The notes: generated from the sequence alone by a model not told the origin. A DNA stretch of 64,000 nucleotides from Budvicia aquatica DSM 5075 = ATCC 35567 (GCF_000427805.1 NZ_ATYS01000017.1:1-64000), one strand, 5' to 3'; numbered from the stretch's first letter, positions 19,526 to 31,561 are shown. Program-made: numbers and translations.

Positions 19526-19601
19526 TCCTCTGTAGTTCAGTCGGTAGAACGGCGGACTGTTAATCCGTATGTCACTGGTTCGAGTCCAGTCAGAGGAGCC
19601 A
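19526..19601 (+). tRNA. asn tRNA: tRNA-Asn (anticodon GTT)
   Basis: 76 nt, identical in sequence to enterobacterial tRNA-Asn (TCCTCTGTAGTTCAGTCGGTAGAACGGCGGACTGTTAATCCG...GGAGCCA). Encoded CCA. Confidence 0.95.
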
Positions 19602-19818: not shown

Positions 19819-22368
19819 TCAATATATTGGCATATCCCATTCTTCTAACGGAATCGGGCGCCCAAAGTAATAACCCTGTGCCCTCAGGCAGCCCAACTTA
19901 AACAGTTTCTGCGCCATTTCTTGTGTTTCGATACCTTCGGCTATCAATGGTACCGATAAGCCGTCAGCTAACCGGATAACGGCTGAAATGATAGCTTCAC
20001 TCTTAGCGCTATTCAGCACGCTGCTGACAAAATCACGGTCGATCTTCAAACAGTCGAAATTCAGGTTATGCAGGTATGAAAGGCTCGAAAAACCAGAACC
20101 AAAATCATCAATTGCAATCGAGATACCGAAAGCGCGAATCCGCGTTAATTGATCCTTAATCACTGGATTGCTTTCCATAATCAGCGATTCGGTAATTTCT
20201 AAGGTGAGGTTTTTAGGCGATAGATTAAACTCATCCAAAACAGTCGTAATATAGCCATAGAAGTCAGGCTGCATCAGTTGCCGCACGGATACGTTGATGT
20301 GAAGTTCAAAGTCCGCCGGCCAGCCGGCTTTTATTTTTTCTGACAGTTGACGACACGACTCATGCAAAACCCACCGCCCAATCGATAAAATCAAACCGGA
20401 CTCCTCAGCCAGCGGGATAAATATATAAGGGGCCACCATGCCATATACTTTGCTGTTCCAACGTATCAACGCTTCAGCCCCAATCACTGAGCTATCTTCA
20501 AGTTTGACTATCGGTTGAAAATAGACCAGAAACTCATTGTTGGTCATCGCCTGGTTTAAATTAGTCAGCATACGGGTGTTATTCACGGCTATAGTCATCA
20601 TATCCGGGTGATAGACTTCATAGGCACCGCTGCCTTTTTTTCTCGCCGCAGCCAGTGCAACAGAGGCATTACGCAGATTATCATTCAGCGCTTTATCATC
20701 GAACTCACCGTTAACAAAACCAATATTCCCAACAAATAGCAAATGCTCGCCTTCATCACTACTTAAGCTAGAAAAGATATCGATATATTTCTTAATTTCT
20801 AGCGAACAAATCTTATGCTCAAAGCTATAGGGATAACAAATCGCAAACTCAGAATCATTGATTCGGGCAAGAAGCGCATTGACGGGTACCGTTTCCAAAA
20901 GGCGTTTAACAAACTCACGCAGGAGTGATTCCCCTTGTTTATATCCAAGAGTGTTATTGATTTCATTTACGTTATCTAAGCTTATCAATATCAATCCTTT
21001 CCAGAGATTCTGTTCTTCCTGAGTTGCTAATTCACGCATTCTTTCCATTAAGCCTTCTTTACTCAATAACCCGGTTATTGAGTCGTAGTAGACCTGACGT
21101 TTTAAACTGGAGAAGGCCTTAGAAAGGGTTAAGGACATATCATTGAAGGCATCATTTAGCAGTTTGATCTCCTTAAGTTCAAACCGGGTCTCTTTTGCCG
21201 GTACCCACTTGAGCTTGGCAATAAGCCTCGCCTGTTTAGCAACCTCTAAAATCGGGGCCGTTATTTTAGCTAACGTGATCCATGCCAGGGTGACGCCAAT
21301 GATAAAAATAAGCACCACTGAAAAGATGGTAATTATCCGGTCTTTATTGAATATACCGACCAAATCATTTTGCGGGACAATAACGGCCATACGCCAGTTT
21401 TGCAGGCCAAGTTCTTCCCCCACGGGAACAACACGTACATAAAAAATTTCATCATCAACATCAAAGGTAATTTTAGTGATATTACGATCGGCCAGATAAG
21501 GGGCAATACTGCGTATAATTTTGCTGTCACTGTCTGCCGGAGACATTAATCGCGCATTTTCCAAACTGGCCAAACCCTGAGATGTCGCCAACACCTCTTT
21601 TTCTACCGTTGAATGGGAAATAATTTTATTATCGCCATTTACAATAAAAATAACCCCGTGACCTAAATTAGGTATCTCTCTGAGATAGTGATTGAATTTC
21701 TCCAGCTTAATGTCGCTGGAGACTACGCCAACGTAACGCTTATTCACATCATAAATCGGGCTATTGTATGAAATGCTAATCCCTTTGAGATCGTCTATAT
21801 CTTGGTAGGCAACGCTCCAGGATGAGAGCTTATTTTTATCTGCGTCACGATACCAAGAGCGCATACGGGGGTCATAATGATGAATTGCATTACGTACCGG
21901 ACTCTCCATTGATATTCCGGAATAAAAATTCAACACGCCGTCCGTTCTGGAATCTTTCAAAATAAGCATAAAGCTGTCTGCCTGAGCCCCTCTGCTTACA
22001 CCGATATAATCCCCATTGGTCGAACCGAAAGCGACAAGGCTTAATTGAGGGGAATACGGAAATATTCGCCGCAATGTTCTTCTTAGCGGAGACTCAAACT
22101 CCTGCAGGTCTTCCAGATCGTCGGTTAAAATCTCGCGCATGGCCATTTCAACGGCGGCGTTAGACTGAACAGGGACTTTAAGAAAGTTAAATAAGTTATT
22201 CTGAACGGTTTCGATCTGGGCTGAGGTTATTTTTTCACCCAGTCCGTTAAATATCAGGTTTTCATTTCGCAGTTGTAAAAAGATGGCCGAACCAAACATG
22301 ATGGTCAAAATAAAAACAAAAAGCGATGTCACTACCAGCTTTAAAGATACTGTATTTAGTACTCGCAC
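19819..22368 (-). CDS. Membrane sensor GGDEF-EAL protein (periplasmic dCache-like domain, HAMP, degenerate GGDEF, intact EAL); probable c-di-GMP phosphodiesterase
   Basis: Two TM helices flank a ~300 aa periplasmic region. The GGDEF signature position reads NDSEF, which is degenerate. EAL motifs are intact (EALIRW, DDFGSGFSSL, KIDRDFV, EGIETQE). Confidence 0.85.
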   Translation of the reverse strand: MRVLNTVSLKLVVTSLFVFILTIMFGSAIFLQLRNENLIFNGLGEKITSAQIETVQNNLFNFLKVPVQSNAAVEMAMREILTDDLEDLQEFESPLRRTLRRIFPYSPQLSLVAFGSTNGDYIGVSRGAQADSFMLILKDSRTDGVLNFYSGISMESPVRNAIHHYDPRMRSWYRDADKNKLSSWSVAYQDIDDLKGISISYNSPIYDVNKRYVGVVSSDIKLEKFNHYLREIPNLGHGVIFIVNGDNKIISHSTVEKEVLATSQGLASLENARLMSPADSDSKIIRSIAPYLADRNITKITFDVDDEIFYVRVVPVGEELGLQNWRMAVIVPQNDLVGIFNKDRIITIFSVVLIFIIGVTLAWITLAKITAPILEVAKQARLIAKLKWVPAKETRFELKEIKLLNDAFNDMSLTLSKAFSSLKRQVYYDSITGLLSKEGLMERMRELATQEEQNLWKGLILISLDNVNEINNTLGYKQGESLLREFVKRLLETVPVNALLARINDSEFAICYPYSFEHKICSLEIKKYIDIFSSLSSDEGEHLLFVGNIGFVNGEFDDKALNDNLRNASVALAAARKKGSGAYEVYHPDMMTIAVNNTRMLTNLNQAMTNNEFLVYFQPIVKLEDSSVIGAEALIRWNSKVYGMVAPYIFIPLAEESGLILSIGRWVLHESCRQLSEKIKAGWPADFELHINVSVRQLMQPDFYGYITTVLDEFNLSPKNLTLEITESLIMESNPVIKDQLTRIRAFGISIAIDDFGSGFSSLSYLHNLNFDCLKIDRDFVSSVLNSAKSEAIISAVIRLADGLSVPLIAEGIETQEMAQKLFKLGCLRAQGYYFGRPIPLEEWDMPIY

Positions 22369-22809: not shown

Positions 22810-22885
22810 TCCTCTGTAGTTCAGTCGGTAGAACGGCGGACTGTTAATCCGTATGTCACTGGTTCAAGTCCAGTCAGAGGAGCCA
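22810..22885 (+). tRNA. asn tRNA: tRNA-Asn (anticodon GTT), second copy with one T-loop substitution
   Basis: Identical to copy 1 except a G-to-A change in the T-loop (TTCAAGT versus TTCGAGT). Confidence 0.93.
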
Positions 22886-22941: not shown

Positions 22942-22977
22942 AAAACCCCGGAATGGTGACATTCCGGGGTTTTTTAA
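22942..22977 (+). terminator. Rho-independent terminator after tRNA-Asn copy 2
   Basis: AACCCCGGAATG..CATTCCGGGGTTTTTT. Confidence 0.7.
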
Positions 22978-23310: not shown

Positions 23311-24033
23311 TTAATGGCCTCCCTCTTCTTTTGGTACGACTTCTTCTTTTGGTACAAATAGCACCTTAGCTAATAACATACATGTTACAACACAAATAAT
23401 GATCGAGGCATATCCTCCACCAAAGGGTAACACGGTAAAAATACCTAATATACTTAATAACTTAACAATAAAAATAACCGGTAAAGCACTTAGCGATAAT
23501 CTTAATGGACTATTTAATAACCTATCCATAAAGAGCGCGCCAAAAAGTGCTGGTAATAAAAACTGTAATGCATCCAGTATTGCTTGAGGAAGGTGCTCAA
23601 TGATCACTTGCCCGGCAACGGCAAGAAATGTCATTAAAGTCAGACTGATAAATATAGAAACTGAAATCCCAATAGCGGTAATAATAGTGCCTTCCGGCGT
23701 TCCTAATTGATACCCTGCAGCGTTCAGAGCCTGAGTTGCAGCAGGAACCCGGACCTCTTTGGTATTCCCGGCCATATAGGATAAATAGAGCCCGGGAACC
23801 CCAAAGATAGATTGCAGTGACATTGGGTCGACAATATACCATGGCAATAAAATAGATAGCATCGAGACCATACCCGTAAAAATACTATCTGCCGTTGGCT
23901 GGGCATCAAAATAAAATAATAAAACTAACACAGGTAAATAGGCCACCAGTAATACTGAACGAGTGCACCATTTTCCGCGGCTAACAATATAAGGCATGTA
24001 GTCTTTTTCAAAAATATCACTTTTCGTTTTCAT
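23311..24033 (-). CDS. Polytopic inner-membrane protein (240 aa), putative transporter subunit
   Basis: Multiple hydrophobic helices. The stop lies about 16 bp before the next membrane-protein gene. Last gene of the sigma54 operon. Confidence 0.5.
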   Translation of the reverse strand: MKTKSDIFEKDYMPYIVSRGKWCTRSVLLVAYLPVLVLLFYFDAQPTADSIFTGMVSMLSILLPWYIVDPMSLQSIFGVPGLYLSYMAGNTKEVRVPAATQALNAAGYQLGTPEGTIITAIGISVSIFISLTLMTFLAVAGQVIIEHLPQAILDALQFLLPALFGALFMDRLLNSPLRLSLSALPVIFIVKLLSILGIFTVLPFGGGYASIIICVVTCMLLAKVLFVPKEEVVPKEEGGH

Positions 24034-24048
24034 TATTATGGTCCATTT

Positions 24049-24795
24049 TTATTTAGCGATCACAGCCACAGTCATTCCGATGACCATACAAATGGTTAAT
24101 CCCCATTCTTTTAACCATTGAATATTTGCTTTTCGATTATAAAGAGTAATACCAGCCATTGCGGACGCAGAGGAAATAATGGCTAGGGTATTGGCTCCTA
24201 AGGGATAACCAAAGTTCATGGTTAATGCACCAAAGCTACCAATCAATGCACCACTGCCAATGATTGGAATCAGGTGAACATTGCCTCCGGATATAACCTT
24301 ATTCACTTTATCCATTCGATGAGCGAAGAATGAAACAAATAATAAGAATGGTAGCCCACATGTCGTCATTACAATGGCCGCCGCACAGAGATAGCTGGCA
24401 TTAAGTTCACTTTTACCTAACGTTAATCCCATTCCATCAGCGGTAAAAGCGGCTTCCATAAGGGCATCGGCAACAGAGCCAATGAAATCAACCCTCATCC
24501 AGGCCATCGGGGCACCGACATACAACATCAGTGTCAGAATGCCTGACAACATCATAAAACAAGGGCCAATTGATGCAATTGATGCCCCCCGAATGGCACT
24601 GCTGACTTTAGCATCAGAAATGCCAATCTCTTTTGCCGTGCGTAAACTTTTTCTGAAAAATAGAAAAGCTTGAGCGAAAACAAAACAGAGTGCGGGAGCT
24701 GCTGCCATCCATAAAATCCAGCTATTGGCAATGTCGCTATACTGTTCTGTCATATCACTCCCCTTCTTCCATCTTGAAGCAGAAGGTGCATACAT
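24049..24795 (-). CDS. Polytopic inner-membrane protein (248 aa), putative transporter subunit
   Basis: Hydrophobic helices throughout. Overlaps the upstream small-protein gene by about 40 bp. Confidence 0.5.
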   Translation of the reverse strand: MYAPSASRWKKGSDMTEQYSDIANSWILWMAAAPALCFVFAQAFLFFRKSLRTAKEIGISDAKVSSAIRGASIASIGPCFMMLSGILTLMLYVGAPMAWMRVDFIGSVADALMEAAFTADGMGLTLGKSELNASYLCAAAIVMTTCGLPFLLFVSFFAHRMDKVNKVISGGNVHLIPIIGSGALIGSFGALTMNFGYPLGANTLAIISSASAMAGITLYNRKANIQWLKEWGLTICMVIGMTVAVIAK

Positions 24796-25255
24796 TATCG
24801 GTAAAGAAATGTTTTTGGTGGATGCATTTCAACTTCGGATTAAAGCCATATGCAATAGACGGATCAATCATTTCACAATAGAGCATGCCATATTTTTCCA
24901 TGCCCAATTTCTGAAATTCACTGGCAAAAACACAGCGCGTAAAAAGCTGTTCTACATATCCATCACCATAACTATCAACGCTCTCAAATTCATCGCTACG
25001 GTCCATGTCATAGCTGACTAAATAATTGTCGCTGTCATTTTTTTGTCCGCGAGCATGGGCTCTTCTGGCAATATCTTTTCCTCGCTCCTCGCCAAATTTC
25101 CAGACACCTCGCTTAATAGCCTCTTCACCTTTTTCACCAAACTCATCAACAACCTCTTTGGCTAATGCAACAAACATTCTGGCAAACATTTGATACATAG
25201 ATACAGGCTCTAAATCATCGGCGATTTTATTACTTTCTACTTTATGATCTTTCAT
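24755..25255 (-). CDS. Small cytoplasmic Cys-rich protein (166 aa); possibly an L-2-amino-thiazoline-4-carboxylate (ATC) hydrolase-like enzyme
   Basis: Soluble, with a C-terminal cysteine cluster (CEMIDP...CIHQKHFFTDNVCTFC). The ATC-hydrolase assignment rests only on gene context with an M20 carbamoylase and is speculative. Confidence 0.4.
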   Translation of the reverse strand: MKDHKVESNKIADDLEPVSMYQMFARMFVALAKEVVDEFGEKGEEAIKRGVWKFGEERGKDIARRAHARGQKNDSDNYLVSYDMDRSDEFESVDSYGDGYVEQLFTRCVFASEFQKLGMEKYGMLYCEMIDPSIAYGFNPKLKCIHQKHFFTDNVCTFCFKMEEGE

Positions 25256-25314
25256 GAGTTATTCCTTATTTAATGATTAACGTGTTTATAACGGTATATT
25301 TACGATACAAATAA

Positions 25315-26547
25315 TTAGCTCTGGTCTAATGCAATCATGGTGTGAAATAACACCTCGGTTCCCTTTGCCATATTTTCCCAAGTAACATTTTCATCAGGAT
25401 GATGAGTGATGCCCTTATAGCAGGGCACAAACAGCATGGCTGACGGGCAAACTCCCGCCATAATCATGGCGTCATGGCCCGCGCCACTATTCATGTGTCG
25501 ATATGATAAATTGAGTTTTTCGCATGAATGAATAATCAGCTGTCTTAATGCTTCATTCATCACTACCGGAGATTTATAAGAAATATTGTTAATATCAAAT
25601 GCAGTATTACATTCTTGTTGAATTAATAACGCTTGCTGATGAATATACCTGTCAATATCTTCAAGAATTTTTGCATCGCCAGAGCGGATATCTAAGGTAA
25701 ATTGGCATTGATTTGGAATACAGTTAGCGGAATTAGGCTGCAGTGAAAATTTTCCTACCGTTAACGTTGCACTATCAGCGTATTGACGAAGAATAAAACG
25801 ATTAAGCTCAGTGACGAATAAACAGCCGGCCACCCCCGCATCTTGCCGCAAGGTCATGGGTACCGTTCCGGCATGGCCAGCAAATCCGGTAATTGTAATT
25901 ACCATTTGCTGTATAGCGACGATACTATCGACAATACCAATATCAATATTGGTTGCTTCTAATACCGGCCCTTGTTCATCGTGCAGCTCTAAAAAAGCTT
26001 TGATCGACTCCGGAGCGCGGAAAGCGGGTTGAACAACCCGATGACCTAAATAGTCTGTGAGCACTTCGCGTAGGCTATTTCCCCGATCGTTATACAGCCG
26101 ATCTTTATCCTGCTCGGAAAACTCTCCGGAAATAAACCGGCTGCCTAACAACACCGTCCCAAAATGAGTGCCTTCTTCTTCAACCGTTGCCAATACTTCA
26201 ACGCTATGGCTTAACTGAATATTGTTTTCTTTTAGTATTCTAACGGCTTCTAGCGCACACACTACGCCGGCAATACCATCAAATGCGCCTGAGTTTCTGA
26301 CTGTATCGAGATGAGAGCCACTGACAATGCTCGGTAATGCCGGATCTTTTCCTAGCAAGATCCCATACACATTGCCCACATCATCTTCTTTAATAATCAG
26401 CCCGATTTCCTGCATCTGTTGCTTAAGATATTCCACACCCTGTCGGTATGTAGCAGTAAGCCCAATTCGGGTCACGCCACCATTACAGGGCTCTGAAATA
26501 TGACGCAGTGTCTCAATATCTTTTTTTAAACGTGATTGATTCGCCAT
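25315..26547 (-). CDS. M20-family amidohydrolase of the N-carbamoyl-L-amino-acid hydrolase / allantoate amidohydrolase (hydantoinase-carbamoylase) group
   Basis: Metal-binding motif signature (GSHLDTV...DGIAGV, EEEG, GHAG...). At 410 aa the length is typical of AmaB/AllC-type dimeric M20 enzymes. Confidence 0.75.
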   Translation of the reverse strand: MANQSRLKKDIETLRHISEPCNGGVTRIGLTATYRQGVEYLKQQMQEIGLIIKEDDVGNVYGILLGKDPALPSIVSGSHLDTVRNSGAFDGIAGVVCALEAVRILKENNIQLSHSVEVLATVEEEGTHFGTVLLGSRFISGEFSEQDKDRLYNDRGNSLREVLTDYLGHRVVQPAFRAPESIKAFLELHDEQGPVLEATNIDIGIVDSIVAIQQMVITITGFAGHAGTVPMTLRQDAGVAGCLFVTELNRFILRQYADSATLTVGKFSLQPNSANCIPNQCQFTLDIRSGDAKILEDIDRYIHQQALLIQQECNTAFDINNISYKSPVVMNEALRQLIIHSCEKLNLSYRHMNSGAGHDAMIMAGVCPSAMLFVPCYKGITHHPDENVTWENMAKGTEVLFHTMIALDQS

Positions 26548-26555
26548 AACGCCGC

Positions 26556-27824
26556 CTACTCCCCTAACATAATGTTTAATATTTCTTGATCCGTTTGCCT
26601 CATTCCCTGGCTGGCTAGCCTTCCGACGGCCTTTATCGTGTGGTCTACCGAAGATTTAACGATGCCGTCACCGGGTTGTAATACGTCATTTTTCATTGCA
26701 ATCTCATGACACATAACGGCAGTTTCAACACAGGTAGCAATTTTGGCTGCACACGAAGCCTTTGCACCGTCACAAATCATGCCGGATAGCGTCCCGAGTG
26801 TATTAATGACTGAGTATTCAATTTGCTCATCAGTGCCCTTTCTCAATAAAGTAATCCCTGCGGCACTACCGCTGGCAGCACAAACGACGCCGCAATAAGC
26901 AGACAATTTTCCGATATAGGATTTTTCATACAGAGCAATAAGGTTGCTAAGGAGCAATGCCCGATAGCGCTCTTCTTGAGATGAATTAAGCTCTTGAGCA
27001 TAAATGATAACGGGCAATGAAACGGTGAGCCCCTGATTACCACTCCCGGAATTAATCATAACCGGTAAATCACATCCGCCCATTCTGGCGTCAGATCCGG
27101 ATGCAGCATATGCTTTAGCGCGATTCTTAGGACTATTATCAGATGTTAATAAAATGGTTTTACCCACATTGACACCATAGGGATTATTAAGGCCTTCTTG
27201 CGCTATTTGTAAGTTATATTGAATCTCTTGATCTAATAGATCGATAAGCGAGGTGTAGTCACTATATCGAGAGAAATGGATAATCTCCTGAAGAGTAATC
27301 CCATTTATCGAATGACTATCCTGTGGGTTGTTATCGATCTCATCTAATTGAGAACAGAGTTGTTCACCATTGCGGATAATGCTAACTACATTCGTGTGCC
27401 CATCTCGAATTTCAACGCTGACCGTATCATTCTTATATTTTCCAGTAATAATGATATGCAATGTGGCATGACTTTCAAGCAGCTCTATTGAGCAAGGAAT
27501 CTGTGGAATTAAGCGCTGACATTGTTCAATTTGTTCTGGCGTTATATCAGACAAAACCTCTAGTTTTTTATCTGAACAGCCAAAATAAGCACCCAATAAA
27601 CAGGCTACGGGAATGCCTTTCATTCCACCGGAATTAGGGACAATGACGCTTTTCACATTTTTAACCATATTTGCACTACATTGTGCAAGCAGCGATTCTG
27701 GTTTATGCGCTAAATATTTAGTCACTAACGAAGAGGCATAAGCGATAGAAATAGGTTCTGTACAACCCAATGCCAATACCATTTCATCACGTAATAATTT
27801 AATTAACTTCAATTCAATACTCAT
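26556..27824 (-). CDS. cyuA: UPF0597 / serine-dehydratase-like L-cysteine desulfidase (CyuA/YhaM family)
   Basis: ALGCTEPIS, SGSDARMGG...NSGSGNQG and MICDGAKASCAAK blocks are collinear with E. coli YhaM. Confidence 0.75.
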   Translation of the reverse strand: MSIELKLIKLLRDEMVLALGCTEPISIAYASSLVTKYLAHKPESLLAQCSANMVKNVKSVIVPNSGGMKGIPVACLLGAYFGCSDKKLEVLSDITPEQIEQCQRLIPQIPCSIELLESHATLHIIITGKYKNDTVSVEIRDGHTNVVSIIRNGEQLCSQLDEIDNNPQDSHSINGITLQEIIHFSRYSDYTSLIDLLDQEIQYNLQIAQEGLNNPYGVNVGKTILLTSDNSPKNRAKAYAASGSDARMGGCDLPVMINSGSGNQGLTVSLPVIIYAQELNSSQEERYRALLLSNLIALYEKSYIGKLSAYCGVVCAASGSAAGITLLRKGTDEQIEYSVINTLGTLSGMICDGAKASCAAKIATCVETAVMCHEIAMKNDVLQPGDGIVKSSVDHTIKAVGRLASQGMRQTDQEILNIMLGE

Positions 27825-27859
27825 ATATATCCTTAATTCATGTGTTATAAGATATATAG

Positions 27860-27875
27860 AGCAAGGAGCATGCCA
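27860..27875 (-). promoter_or_regulatory. Sigma54 (-24/-12) promoter, TGGCATGCTCCTTGCT on the minus strand, driving the cyuA-like operon
   Basis: GG and GC elements are spaced exactly as in the TGGCACG-N4-TTGCW consensus. The site lies about 35 nt upstream of the cyuA-like ATG, and an AAGGA RBS follows. Confidence 0.6.
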
Positions 27876-27952
27876 ACCTCATTTAAAATAAAAGCCAATA
27901 TCATTAATTCATTAAAAATCAATAAATAGCTTCGACCCCTAATTAATTATAT

Positions 27953-27968
27953 GTGAGTAGAGTCACAA
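27953..27968. promoter_or_regulatory. Perfect TGTGA-N6-TCACA palindrome (CRP-type site or enhancer-binding protein UAS) ~90 bp upstream of the sigma54 promoter
   Basis: ATGTGAGTAGAGTCACAAA. Confidence 0.45.
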
Positions 27969-28148
27969 AAAATAACAAAATGAGTTGGCGTAGATTTATA
28001 CAAATTTTTATTATTGTTAGGAATATATTTGGCTTTAAGCCTGATTACCAACCTAACATATTGATTTTATTTAATTAACTAAATATGGTAAAAATTCTTA
28101 AAAATAAGAATGAGCATAAGCAACAGCCAGTGAGTAATTTCGCTTGGT

Positions 28149-28934
28149 TTAAACATCCCGTAATTTTTTTCTGAACTCCGCAGGGGACACCCTCATTAAT
28201 TTACGAAAGATAGAAATTAACGCTGATGCGCTGTTATAACCTAGCTCAAATGCAATTGACTCAATGGTATAATCCGTTTCGCCCAACAGAGATAATGCCT
28301 TGATGACTCGTAACCGCTGGCGCCATTCTCCTAATGTAATACCTAGCTCTTGTTTACTTCTGCGCATTAACGTTCTTTCTGTTGTATTAAATTGGCGAGC
28401 TAGCTGCGAAAGAGACAGGCAAGAGTGAGGGTTATCATCCAGAAATTGCAGAATAGGCTTAAGAATGCGATCGTTTGAAGTCGGTAAATAACTGTCCACT
28501 TTAGGCATTTCACACAGTTGATCGACTAAAACTTGGAGTAAACGCTTCTCTTTATCCGTTTCAGGAAAAATAATTTCATTGTTCTGTAAAGTCCATAAGA
28601 TACTTCTAATTAATGGATTTAGGAGCAATATCGTTGGTTGCTTAGGCAGAGACTCACAATATTCAGATAAGATATACAAAGAACAATGTACGACTTCACA
28701 ATTATTAAATGCAATATGTTCAACCCTTGGTGGTAGCCATAAACCATACTGAGGTGGGACAAGAAAATGTTTATCATCTATATGAATTTTCATTACCCCT
28801 CGATAGCAAAAGTTAAACTCTCCGCAACCATGTTGGTGCTTAGGATAAATACCATTCTTAGGCATAAAAACTATGCGAGGAAATATCGGTGATGGCAGCT
28901 CATCGCCATATGCCGGTAAAATTATTTGGCTCAT
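28149..28934 (-). CDS. AraC/XylS-family transcriptional regulator with N-terminal cupin sensor domain
   Basis: C-terminal dual HTH (LSQLARQFNTTERTLMRRSKQELG..., ESIAFELGYNSASALISIFRK). N-terminal beta-barrel region. Confidence 0.8.
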   Translation of the reverse strand: MSQIILPAYGDELPSPIFPRIVFMPKNGIYPKHQHGCGEFNFCYRGVMKIHIDDKHFLVPPQYGLWLPPRVEHIAFNNCEVVHCSLYILSEYCESLPKQPTILLLNPLIRSILWTLQNNEIIFPETDKEKRLLQVLVDQLCEMPKVDSYLPTSNDRILKPILQFLDDNPHSCLSLSQLARQFNTTERTLMRRSKQELGITLGEWRQRLRVIKALSLLGETDYTIESIAFELGYNSASALISIFRKLMRVSPAEFRKKLRDV

Positions 28935-29129: not shown

Positions 29130-30563
29130 ATGACTATGTCCCTTAAGAACATTGAAAATTTTATTCAATCTTATATTAATACGATTGCGATAGTATTAAA
29201 GCTTGATATAACCGTCGTGGATAATAATTTAGTCAGGATAGCAGGGACAAACCGTTATTCTACTGAGATCGGAAATACGATTCATAAAACGAAATTCTAT
29301 CAAGACGTGTTTAGCTCAGGATTACCTAATATCATGTGTAAGAAAACGAGATTTTCCGCTTGTTATTCCTGTGCTAGGTATCGAAGTTGCTCTGAGTTGG
29401 CTGATATAGCCTATCCAATAAAATACAACAATGACATTATTGGCGTTATCAGCCTGATTGCATTTACCGAAGAATCTAAAGAAACGCTGATCAATAATGA
29501 TAAAAGCTATATAGATTTTTTAAAATGCATTAGTACCTTGTTAGCAAGCCAGCTATTAGTTTCAATTGTTAAAATTCCATTAAAGTCTAATCTCAGCCAA
29601 ATACAGAATAAATCTAAAGTTGAATTTATTAGCGCTGATTCCCGAGTTAAAAAACTGCTTGAGACCGCAAAACAAACGGCAAACTCGGATTCAACCACTC
29701 TTATCACGGGAGAGAGCGGAACAGGTAAAGATGTATTAGCCAAAATTATTCATCAATCAAGTAACCGGTCCGCGCATCCGCTCATATCAGTTAACTGTGG
29801 TGCAATACCGGAAAATTTAATTGAAAGTGAGTTGTTTGGCTATGAACGAGGCGCTTTTACCGGCGCCAACAGAGAGGGAAGCATAGGCAAATTCGAGTTA
29901 GCCAATAATGGTATTTTGTTTCTTGATGAAGTGGGAGAGATGCCACTTACCGCTCAAACAAGGCTACTACGCGTGTTGCAAGAAAAGACAATCCAACGTA
30001 TTGGCGGGAAAGATGATATTGCTATTAATGTAAAAATTATCTGTGCAACAAATCAGAATTTACAGCATTTGATTCAAGAGAAAAAATTTCGGGAAGATCT
30101 CTATTACCGGATTCATGTTATTCCGCTTCATATTCCGCCGTTAAGGGAAAGAAAAAACGATATACAGCTGCTTTCAGAGCACTTTCTAAACCACTTTAAC
30201 CATAAATTTAGTAAAGAAATCATCATCAATAATAATGTTCTTGATATATTAAAAACCTACTTATGGCCGGGAAATGTCAGAGAACTAAAAAATTTCTTTG
30301 AATACTTAACCAATATCAAAATGAGCGGAGAGATCGACGAAAGTGATATCCCGCCATCAATGCGTCATATACCAGAGATGAAAACAGAATCTTCCCGGTC
30401 GCTAAAATCAATGCTCAAAATACAAGAAAGCCAGCTGTTACACTCACTAATCTCCACGACGTACAGTGCAAATGGAAAAAAGCAGTTGGCTAATCAACTC
30501 GGTATATCAGTCTCATCCCTGTATCGGAAAATAGCTGAATATAAACTGCAGCAAAGAGGCTAA
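29130..30563 (+). CDS. Sigma54-dependent transcriptional activator (bEBP) with N-terminal Cys-cluster sensor domain and C-terminal HTH
   Basis: AAA+ sigma54-interaction domain (GESGTGKDVLAKIIH, ELFGYERGAFTGAN GAFTGA motif, LLRVLQEK). The N-terminal ~150 aa contain CKKTRFSACYSCARYRSC. C-terminal HTH is KKQLANQLGISVSSLYRKI. Confidence 0.85.
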   Translation: MTMSLKNIENFIQSYINTIAIVLKLDITVVDNNLVRIAGTNRYSTEIGNTIHKTKFYQDVFSSGLPNIMCKKTRFSACYSCARYRSCSELADIAYPIKYNNDIIGVISLIAFTEESKETLINNDKSYIDFLKCISTLLASQLLVSIVKIPLKSNLSQIQNKSKVEFISADSRVKKLLETAKQTANSDSTTLITGESGTGKDVLAKIIHQSSNRSAHPLISVNCGAIPENLIESELFGYERGAFTGANREGSIGKFELANNGILFLDEVGEMPLTAQTRLLRVLQEKTIQRIGGKDDIAINVKIICATNQNLQHLIQEKKFREDLYYRIHVIPLHIPPLRERKNDIQLLSEHFLNHFNHKFSKEIIINNNVLDILKTYLWPGNVRELKNFFEYLTNIKMSGEIDESDIPPSMRHIPEMKTESSRSLKSMLKIQESQLLHSLISTTYSANGKKQLANQLGISVSSLYRKIAEYKLQQRG

Positions 30564-30595
30564 TGGAGGTGCCTTACCCGACAAGCCAGTGAACG

Positions 30596-30657
30596 AAAAA
30601 AGCCCCGACGAATTGTCAGGGCTTTTAGGTTACTGCATACTTAGAATTTAACATTAA
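30596..30657 (+). repeat. ~60-bp intergenic repeat, copy B
   Basis: Direct repeat of copy A (23066-23127), located immediately after the bEBP stop codon. Confidence 0.7.
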
Positions 30658-30844
30658 TTACTTCAATAAGTTATAACTGATACTGCTACTAGATGTACAC
30701 GTTCATAAGAGAAAAATTAAGTATTTGTAGCGAACAATTCCTCCGATTTATTAACTTAAAACACATAATTCCCTAAACATTCATATTAGCTCATCGATTG
30801 TCTGACTCACTAACTTAGTACACCACCCTCGCGATATGTATTTA

Positions 30845-31080
30845 CTACATGGCCTTACATTCGTCGCGATATTCTAAATCAATGTAAAAATACCCATTAA
30901 TCGCGAACATTGACTACAACTACAGGGCCTTTATCGCGCTAATTTTCTGTTCCTGCCGCGATGATACTCTTAACTTCGAGGCCTGACTCCCATCACGATA
31001 TAACTGATTTAATATATCCCCCATCGTGACGATGTCCAATTAACATTGGTTAACTACGAGGCCTTTATCGCGTATATTTA
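30845..31080 (+). repeat. Array of four imperfect ~28-bp direct repeats (consensus ~TAACTACRRGGCCTTTATCGCG.TAT) in the ptsG-like leader region
   Basis: Copies start near 30845, 30918, 30974 and 31054. The two best copies are CTACAGGGCCTTTATCGCGCTAATTTT and CTACGAGGCCTTTATCGCGTATATTTA. Confidence 0.55.
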
Positions 31081-31419
31081 CTAAAACACAGACAACCTAT
31101 AAATCGCCTGAAAGCCCGATTCCGTCTGCGTTAACAACCAATTTAACCATTTAAATTTAGTTGTCAATACTGTTTTTAAATACAGTGCATTTATAATTTT
31201 ATAACCCCTAATTTATTAGTGACTAAGCGAGTTGAAAGTTGCTGATATCACACAATAAAAACCACAAAATATGATCGGGTACCGATATGCTGGGCCCCCA
31301 TACTAAGTAAAAAGAGACCGTTATTGATAAATTTCGCCTCGCTCTTTCTGGTGAATCTCATGTAGTCGTCTACACTCAAAAAACGATTTTATTTACTCAC
31401 CATTCAAATGTATTTAATG

Positions 31420-31441
31420 ATTTGTGATCATAATCACCTAA
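31420..31441. promoter_or_regulatory. CRP-binding site candidate (TGTGATCATAATCACC) ~125 bp upstream of ptsG-like start
   Basis: TGTGA-N6-TCACc with AT-rich flanks. Confidence 0.5.
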
Positions 31442-31561
31442 TGTAACTTTTATTTATTTTACGCTGTGAAATAAATAAGCCTGACTGAAAAATCGACAGT
31501 TTTAGACCAGCTTTACATACACCGTTCTCACTTAAAACATACATGCTCCGGAGCGTTTTTC

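Follow-up and report, generated by a model that had tools for sequence, protein, structure and literature searches.

Escherichia coli and Salmonella break down cysteine anaerobically with a [4Fe-4S] desulfidase encoded by the cyuPA genes, which are under CyuR control; in E. coli K-12, the cysteine importer gene cyuP adjoins cyuA. Hydantoin-utilisation (hyu) clusters bring together a transporter, a ring-opening hydrolase and an M20 carbamoylase that frees the L-amino acid. In Pseudomonas, AtcB and AtcC convert 2-aminothiazoline-4-carboxylate (ATC) to cysteine, the former as L-ATC hydrolase and the latter as N-carbamoyl-L-cysteine amidohydrolase, according to the accounts of Shiba 2002 and Tashima 2006 given in PMC10821248 and PMC5847659. 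Here we describe a five-gene operon on the minus strand of a 64-kb stretch of Budvicia aquatica DNA (hereafter the window, meaning the whole stretch analysed), which encodes a desulfidase of the same [4Fe-4S] family as that of cyuPA, has the same three kinds of component as the hyu clusters and, like the Pseudomonas genes, places the gene of a predicted PF14196-family ring-opening enzyme beside an L-carbamoylase-type M20 gene. In order of transcription, its genes are:

26556-27824, minus strand: SDH_alpha/CyuA-like desulfidase (422 aa; PF03313, E 1e-62)
25315-26547, minus strand: M20 amidase of the hydantoinase/carbamoylase family (410 aa; TIGR01879)
24755-25255, minus strand: PF14196 ATC-hydrolase-family protein (166 aa, 5 Cys)
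24049-24753, minus strand: DUF5058 polytopic membrane protein (234 aa; PF16481, E 3e-52)
23311-24033, minus strand: second polytopic membrane protein, partner of DUF5058 (240 aa; without a Pfam or NCBIfam model)

The families guessed for these genes in a preliminary description of the same DNA were borne out by hidden Markov model (HMM) scans. That description had also called the five genes tightly packed or overlapping: the packing is indeed tight, with gaps of 8, 59, 1 and 15 nt, but the overlap is an artefact of calling open reading frames (ORFs). Gene callers start the DUF5058 gene at MTEQ, 1 nt past the stop of the 166-aa gene; the overlap appeared because the start of the longest ORF had been taken, which gives a 248-aa product reaching into the 166-aa gene. 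On exact comparison of sequences, the eight proteins looked up from this part of the window all proved to be Budvicia aquatica proteins, PHI31419 to PHI31426.

With moderate confidence, we favour reading this locus as a sigma54-dependent operon that takes ATC through N-carbamoyl-cysteine and cysteine to pyruvate, H2S and two NH3. It would be a substrate-inducible catabolic operon, transcribed from a sigma54 promoter opened by the adjacent one-component activator. The DUF5058 protein and its 240-aa partner would form a two-subunit inner-membrane importer of a cyclic cysteine derivative, most likely ATC, a cyanide/cystine adduct. The PF14196 enzyme, with a V4R-like fold and a probable Cys3 metal site, would hydrolyse the thiazoline C-S bond to give N-carbamoyl-L-cysteine, from which the M20 carbamoylase would release L-cysteine, CO2 and NH3. 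The CyuA-type [4Fe-4S] desulfidase would then convert the cysteine to pyruvate, NH3 and H2S, and the cell would obtain carbon, nitrogen and sulfur without build-up of free cysteine. A route to cysteine from a carbamoylated or cyclic precursor had already been proposed from the gene content, and it is supported here by what can be observed directly: the gene content itself, conserved catalytic residues, a promoter that co-varies with the activator gene, and linkage across phyla. What we infer from these is that ATC is the substrate, that transport takes place and in which direction, to which effector the activator responds, and that expression depends on RpoN.

The desulfidase matches PF03313 over residues 86-417 (212 bits) and comprises an N-terminal domain and the SDH_alpha catalytic domain. 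It aligns over its full length with the L-cysteine desulfidase of PDB entries 9HE0/9FSL (E 7e-21) and, at 36% identity, with E. coli CyuA. In M. maripaludis CyuA, the [4Fe-4S] ligands are C287, C329 and C336, an essential catalytic C23/E25 pair is present that serine dehydratases lack, and R223, N239 and K339 lie near an anion site (PMC12647591). The equivalents in the Budvicia protein are C311, C351 and C358 for the cluster, C21 and E23 for the Cys/Glu pair, and R247, N263 and K361 for the anion site; all eight residues are invariant in this protein and in the other module-linked orthologues aligned (11 of 11). The earlier assignment to the YhaM/CyuA family stands with 8/8 functional residues kept, and we predict the protein to be a CyuA-family [4Fe-4S] L-cysteine desulfidase paralogue. 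Cysteine is proposed as the product amino acid because CyuA orthologues, whose Cys/Glu pair is specific to cysteine, have been recruited repeatedly and independently, which we consider the strongest argument on this point. Since the desulfidase belongs to the same operon, the pathway would be catabolic down to pyruvate and H2S.

The M20 amidase scores 384 bits against TIGR01879 (hydantoinase/carbamoylase family; cutoff 204); among solved structures, 3N5F, a Geobacillus N-carbamoyl-L-amino-acid hydrolase, comes closest to it (E 1e-67). When the two are aligned, the GSHLD, FDG, EEEG, ELH.EQG, HAG, N..IP, LD.R and H.P motifs all match up; these are the metal and substrate sites described for BsLcar. 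Part of the evidence on this enzyme would also suit a ureide/allantoate nitrogen-scavenging operon, in which it would act as an allantoate amidohydrolase, with serine or some other amino acid being deaminated by the SDH_alpha protein. Its top NCBIfam model, the subfamily-level NF006771, is named 'allantoate amidohydrolase' and is passed with 423 against a cutoff of 399, a point that weighs against our assignment; among solved structures, those of AllC and ureidoglycolate hydrolase follow 3N5F closely, E. coli AllC being nearly as close as the L-carbamoylase. However, the AllC equivalogs miss their cutoffs by a wide margin (TIGR03176, 296 vs 598; NF006768, 330 vs 532), the ErtE model is likewise missed (387 vs 520), and the neighbourhood holds no other allantoin genes. 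Besides, the partner gene is PF14196, and the SDH_alpha protein has the Cys/Glu pair. We ruled out an allantoate pathway on the failure of the AllC equivalogs and the lack of allantoin genes nearby, and regard the nitrogen-scavenging operon as a whole as extremely unlikely. The carbamoylase-type assignment of the preliminary description is thereby upheld, with the name of NF006771 as a caveat, and the M20 protein is predicted to be an N-carbamoyl-L-cysteine amidohydrolase.

Gene linkage was followed in 80 species genomes that hold a PF14196 relative (43-83% identity), by mapping the window proteins onto their loci. A homologue of the window-type M20 carbamoylase lies within 10 kb of the PF14196 gene in 66 of the 80 genomes, and is adjacent and co-directional with it in 48; the M20 partners tested, from Paenibacillus, Clostridium transplantifaecale and Acidaminococcus, are all of the TIGR01879 type. 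At the PF14196 locus, a CyuA-like gene is found in 12/80 genomes, the membrane pair in 6/80 and an activator homologue in 4/80, three of the last (two Gilliamella, and Pragia) with the cassette. The whole cassette was observed in Gilliamella apicola, Cedecea colo, Pragia fontium and an uncultured Klebsiella sp. (L087), while Klebsiella sp. MISC125 and Mixta tenebrionis carry four of its genes, without that for the desulfidase; partner homologues also occur in Raoultella, K. huaxiensis and Intestinirhabdus. Regulators differ by lineage, being the sigma54 activator, a YheO-like PAS_6/HTH_22 protein (in many Bacillaceae and one Klebsiella), IclR or MerR. This linkage across phyla supports the view that the genes serve a single pathway, as does the return of all five, differently ordered, in the distant contig L094. 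The surroundings of the cassette also differ: it lies beside a tRNA-Asn gene in Budvicia, between IS66-type genes on one side and a P4-type integrase on the other in the uncultured Klebsiella, and between secDF and bio genes in Pragia, and it therefore looks horizontally mobile. Searches for the cassette in plasmids and in complete E. coli genomes gave no match.

In the Klebsiella sp. MISC125 locus (L010, 12356-14122), the cassette has no CyuA-like gene, and after it come genes for a YheO-like PAS_6/HTH_22 regulator and a pyridoxal phosphate (PLP) enzyme of the D-serine dehydratase/D-threo-hydroxyaspartate aldolase family; YheO-like regulators adjoin PF14196-M20 pairs in many Bacillaceae.

The 166-aa protein, which the preliminary description had singled out for comparison with the PF14196 ATC_hydrolase family, matches the whole model (positions 2-145 of 145) with 77.6 bits against a cutoff of 28.1 (E 2e-21). 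Its C108, C127 and C156 are invariant across 19 sequences, and a conserved Cys cluster is common to PF14196 and V4R domains (PMC5847659). We predict that it is the thiazoline ring-opening enzyme. Its fold is V4R/HNOB-like, matching the sensor domains of DmpR and PoxR as well as H-NOX and V4R, and a fold of the ligand-sensor type speaks against a catalytic role. The same fold (PMC5847659) invites a different explanation, in which the 166-aa protein would be a V4R-like ligand-binding subunit of the DUF5058 pair that traps substrate in the cytoplasm or gates the pair, instead of a hydrolase; ready-made N-carbamoyl or N-acyl cysteine would be imported, and the M20 amidase would be the sole cleaving enzyme. 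In agreement with this, the DUF5058-partner-PF14196 trio is always contiguous and is conserved at 78-87%, against 57-69% for the two flanking enzymes, and trios without an M20 gene exist. In contrast, the protein from which the family was first defined is an enzyme that had been purified (Tashima 2006, as cited in PMC5847659), and in 74/80 genomes PF14196 occurs without the membrane pair, yet beside a carbamoylase, as a soluble enzyme would. A purely ligand-binding role is thus improbable in our judgement, and a ring-opening enzyme is the assignment we retain.

The two membrane proteins had been put forward for comparison with transporter families, and HMM scans placed one of them: the DUF5058 protein, with 5 or 6 hydrophobic segments, matches PF16481, but its partner, with ~7, has no Pfam or NCBIfam family match even at E 10. 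The partner nevertheless belongs to a family of ~1,000 representatives at 50% identity, a profile search having found 1,019 at E up to 1e-3 among 1.84 billion; the representatives listed are mostly ~220-240 aa long. We ruled out that the two proteins are homologous halves of one transporter, as profile comparison gave a probability of 0.4% and BLASTP likewise found no similarity. The DUF5058 gene lies directly ahead of the partner gene in all seven non-enterobacterial contexts examined, and the DUF5058, partner and PF14196 genes are contiguous, in this order, in 5/5 contexts with a partner at least 40% identical (Clostridiales, Synergistaceae and other metagenome-derived contigs). Two remote partner relatives (~30% identity) stand beside M20 or AstE-type deacylase genes, without a PF14196 gene. 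In Paenibacillus, a Liv-type ABC amino-acid transporter takes this place, upstream of PF14196 and M20. We call DUF5058 and its partner a putative transporter pair because of this gene context, not because of homology to a known transporter, and regard the second protein as the obligate partner of DUF5058.

A further locus with this pair, on a metagenome contig (L095, 2041-14962), encodes, in one direction, a sigma54 activator, an AstE/AspA-family deacylase, DUF5058, the partner, four M20 amidohydrolases, a major facilitator superfamily transporter, RidA and HpaB. It would be a large N-acyl-amino-acid utilisation cluster using the DUF5058/partner transporter pair.

The substrate is the weakest link of the pathway, and several observations count against the reading we favour. 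This orthologous group is tied to ATC by its likeness to AtcB in family and gene pairing, a tie that may not extend to the substrate itself. ATC occurs naturally in animals, from cyanide and cystine (PMC9291117); it is a low-abundance metabolite, and its ecological relevance is therefore uncertain. The structure model of the partner is poor and matched no known transporter. One locus (L094) holds all five functions in another order, namely a YheO-like regulator, M20, DUF5058, a 43% identical partner, PF14196 and SDH_alpha, but its M20 is of the TIGR01891 N-acyl-amino-acid amidohydrolase type and not a carbamoylase, and three contexts hold the DUF5058-partner-PF14196 trio without an M20 gene nearby. 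Relatives of the PF14196 protein at ~50% identity also stand beside arginase-family, Nramp and IclR genes in Acidaminococcus, and beside TctABC and PrpD in Salirhabdus. With close relatives in such other contexts, the substrate range of the family is probably wider than ATC, and PF14196 proteins probably handle several cyclic amidine or ureido compounds.

These points bear on an explanation that keeps the logic of import, ring opening or deacylation, cysteine release and desulfidation and replaces ATC by another natural substrate: a different 2-substituted thiazoline-4-carboxylate, an S- or N-acyl or carbamoyl cysteine, a seleno-analogue or a related heterocycle. The several enzyme contexts of PF14196 relatives would suit it, as would the distant five-gene cluster with an N-acyl-amino-acid amidohydrolase-type M20, the remoter relatives of the transporter pair that lie beside several M20 or AstE-type deacylases without PF14196, and the Klebsiella version in which the desulfidase is replaced by a neighbouring PLP enzyme of the D-serine dehydratase/aldolase family. 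On the other hand, the loci of Enterobacterales and most of those of Bacillota have an M20 of the hydantoinase/carbamoylase family, which points to a ureido intermediate such as ATC gives, and the sole characterised PF14196 member acts on ATC. We consider a substrate other than ATC a possibility to be kept in view, though a doubtful one, and ATC is the compound we continue with.

The Acidaminococcus locus (L089, 4464-9477), which lies near rpoN, has the gene of the PF14196 relative (52% identity) together with those of a carbamoylase-type M20, an arginase-family ureohydrolase, IclR and a split Nramp. It hints at another substrate, of the cyclic guanidine or ureido type, in gut Negativicutes.

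The elements that would control the operon lie upstream of the desulfidase gene:

27860-27875, minus strand: sigma54 -24/-12 promoter, TGGCATGCTCCTTGCT (exact pattern match)
27952-27967, no strand assigned: TGTGA-N6-TCACA palindrome, candidate activator or CRP site (pattern match)
28149-28934, minus strand: AraC-family regulator, cupin plus HTH_18 (Pfam HTH_18, E 2e-21)
29130-30563, plus strand: one-component sigma54 activator, a bacterial enhancer-binding protein (Pfam Sigma54_activat, E 2.6e-70)

The -24/-12 promoter is where the preliminary description had put it, ~35 nt upstream of the cyuA-like start: TGGCATGCTCCTTGCT ends 35 nt ahead of the ATG at 27824. It is the sole exact match to TGGCAY-N5-TTGCW in 64 kb (0.28 expected), and no further match in the window at up to two mismatches keeps both GG and GC. 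Its spacing is that of the consensus, 10 bp from the second G of GG to the G of GC. The box reads TGGCATAAAAATTGCT in Gilliamella and TGGCATGCCCGTTGCA in Pragia, begins 51, 51 and 58 nt ahead of the ATG in Budvicia, Gilliamella and Pragia, respectively, and is the best-conserved block of intergenic DNA that otherwise aligns poorly among the three. The activator gene was seen beside the cassette in Budvicia, in Gilliamella (57% identical) and in Pragia (54% identical) only, and exactly these three have the box; the Cedecea (L009) and uncultured Klebsiella (L087) copies have neither. Because the box is conserved in three genera and co-varies with the activator gene, there is good evidence, from comparison of genomes, that the operon is under sigma54 control, as had been proposed.

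In the activator, an AAA+ domain that bears GAFTGA lies between an N-terminal sensor, in which a C-x2-C-x5-C triad is invariant, and an HTH_8 at the C-terminus; the sensor gave weak PocR/GAF-like matches only. Both the Gilliamella and Pragia orthologues keep the Cys triad, and their loop reads GSFTGA and GAFTGA, respectively. The UniRef name of the activator, '(S)-limonene 6-monooxygenase', is an evident mis-annotation.

The AraC gene shares the strand of the operon and immediately precedes it; the activator gene is divergent from the AraC gene. This layout would suit an explanation in which the -24/-12 match and the palindrome arose by chance, and in which sigma70 transcribes the operon under control of the AraC protein. 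A single match somewhere in 64 kb has a 25% chance of arising, and the Klebsiella and Cedecea cassettes work without a nearby activator gene. However, the position of the box is kept in three genera with diverged flanks, it co-occurs strictly with the activator gene, and Pragia has activator and box without the AraC gene. No competing sigma70 promoter stands out upstream of the operon either. Chance is thus a very unlikely explanation, and sigma54 control remains the one we adopt. The AraC regulator is kept in Gilliamella (72%); as it is missing from Pragia, it would play an auxiliary part at most. Just past the AraC stop, at 28089-28105, ATTTTTAAGAATTTTTA is shared by Budvicia and Gilliamella, both with the AraC gene, and is partly kept in Pragia; it may be a regulator site or a piece of a terminator.

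A perfect TGTGA-N6-TCACA, reported earlier at ~90 bp above the promoter, is indeed present, with its centre ~92 nt upstream of the promoter centre. It is the sole match in the window (0.03 expected) and is centred at -109.5 from the inferred start. Pragia has a copy with one mismatch, TGTGATTGCTATCTCA, also at exactly -109.5 within diverged flanks, and the palindrome is not conserved in Gilliamella. The sequence fits the CRP consensus and the NifA-type TGT-N10-ACA upstream activator sequence alike, which makes it a candidate site for the activator or for CRP. A perfect 13-mer of the IHF consensus, WATCAANNNNTTR, was also noticed, at -61 in Pragia, between palindrome and promoter, and at -210 in Budvicia, upstream of the palindrome; as this placement is inconsistent, the claim of an IHF site was dropped.

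If the ATC pathway is right, the operon would provide a compact and complete route from ATC, a stable animal product of cyanide detoxification, to pyruvate, ammonia and H2S, and such a route would be present in Enterobacterales and gut Bacillota. DUF5058 and an unnamed membrane family of ~1,000 sequence clusters would each gain a first function, the widespread PF14196 a physiological role beyond an industrial Pseudomonas process, and CyuA-type desulfidases, a gut source of H2S, a second, precursor-fed setting. The sigma54 activator with its Cys-triad sensor would offer a tractable new effector/activator pair. We also entertain a more speculative idea, which we think unlikely: DUF5058, its partner and PF14196 would be a new type of uptake system, widespread in anaerobes, in which ring opening by a small, coupled metallo-hydrolase of the cytoplasm pulls a heterocyclic amino-acid derivative through a two-subunit permease of new fold, and which recycles ATC in Budvicia, Gilliamella and insect- or gut-associated Enterobacterales. 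Were this so, cyanogenic diets would be linked to bacterial H2S production.

Downstream of the operon, two further features were recorded:

22946-22975, no strand assigned: GC-rich hairpin and T-run (read from the sequence)
22810-22885: tRNA-Asn gene, downstream of the operon

The hairpin has a perfect 10-bp stem, CCCCGGAATG-GTGA-CATTCCGGGG, with a T6 run, and lies past the tRNA-Asn gene; the terminator scan has no entry at 22946-22975. It terminates tRNA-Asn, and may act bidirectionally as the end of the operon as well. A dCache-GGDEF-EAL gene (19819-22368) has a tRNA-Asn(GUU) gene on either side, at 19526-19601 and 22810-22885, the second of which borders the operon. On the other side of the locus, the 1 kb that separates the activator gene from a ptsG-like EIICB gene (30564-31561) has no ORF longer than 45 aa, and an Rfam scan of it gave no match at gathering score; the gap is identical in other Budvicia contigs. 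A Budvicia aquatica assembly of 5,913,003 bp carries the cassette genes as pieces of 78, 384/390, 123, 109 and 43 aa (VFS51778-VFS51787). These fragments are probably frameshift errors, and may be the reason why the species representative gave no 100% match in the genome scan.

The locus had not been recognised as a described operon, and our literature search agrees, having found no description of it and no paper mentioning DUF5058; cyuA was linked to carbamoylases only in a review of cysteine production. The closest counterpart, as judged by family, is Pseudomonas atcB/atcC. Unlike that pair, the Budvicia operon adds a CyuA-type desulfidase, a membrane pair and control by sigma54 and its activator, and its hosts are Enterobacterales, Orbaceae and anaerobic Bacillota. 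In contrast to cyuPA, the Budvicia desulfidase gene has no adjacent cyuP-type importer gene, its neighbours being M20, PF14196 and DUF5058; an AraC-family regulator and a sigma54 activator are found nearby instead of a CyuR-type regulator, and cysteine would be formed inside the cell from a precursor. With respect to hyu clusters, the predicted ring opener is a small V4R-like PF14196 protein and not a dihydropyrimidinase-type hydantoinase, the putative transporter is not an NCS1 permease, and a dedicated lyase would consume the amino-acid product. Unlike the V4R/HNOB sensor domains of the phenol-responsive DmpR, PoxR and MopR, the PF14196 protein, for which we predict a catalytic role, stands alone and carries neither an AAA+ nor a DNA-binding domain. 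Altogether, Pseudomonas already provides a precedent for the chemistry, as do E. coli and methanogens for the desulfidase; what is new is their fusion into one catabolic operon with a two-protein membrane system and sigma54 control, and its spread over Enterobacterales, Orbaceae, Clostridia and Synergistaceae.

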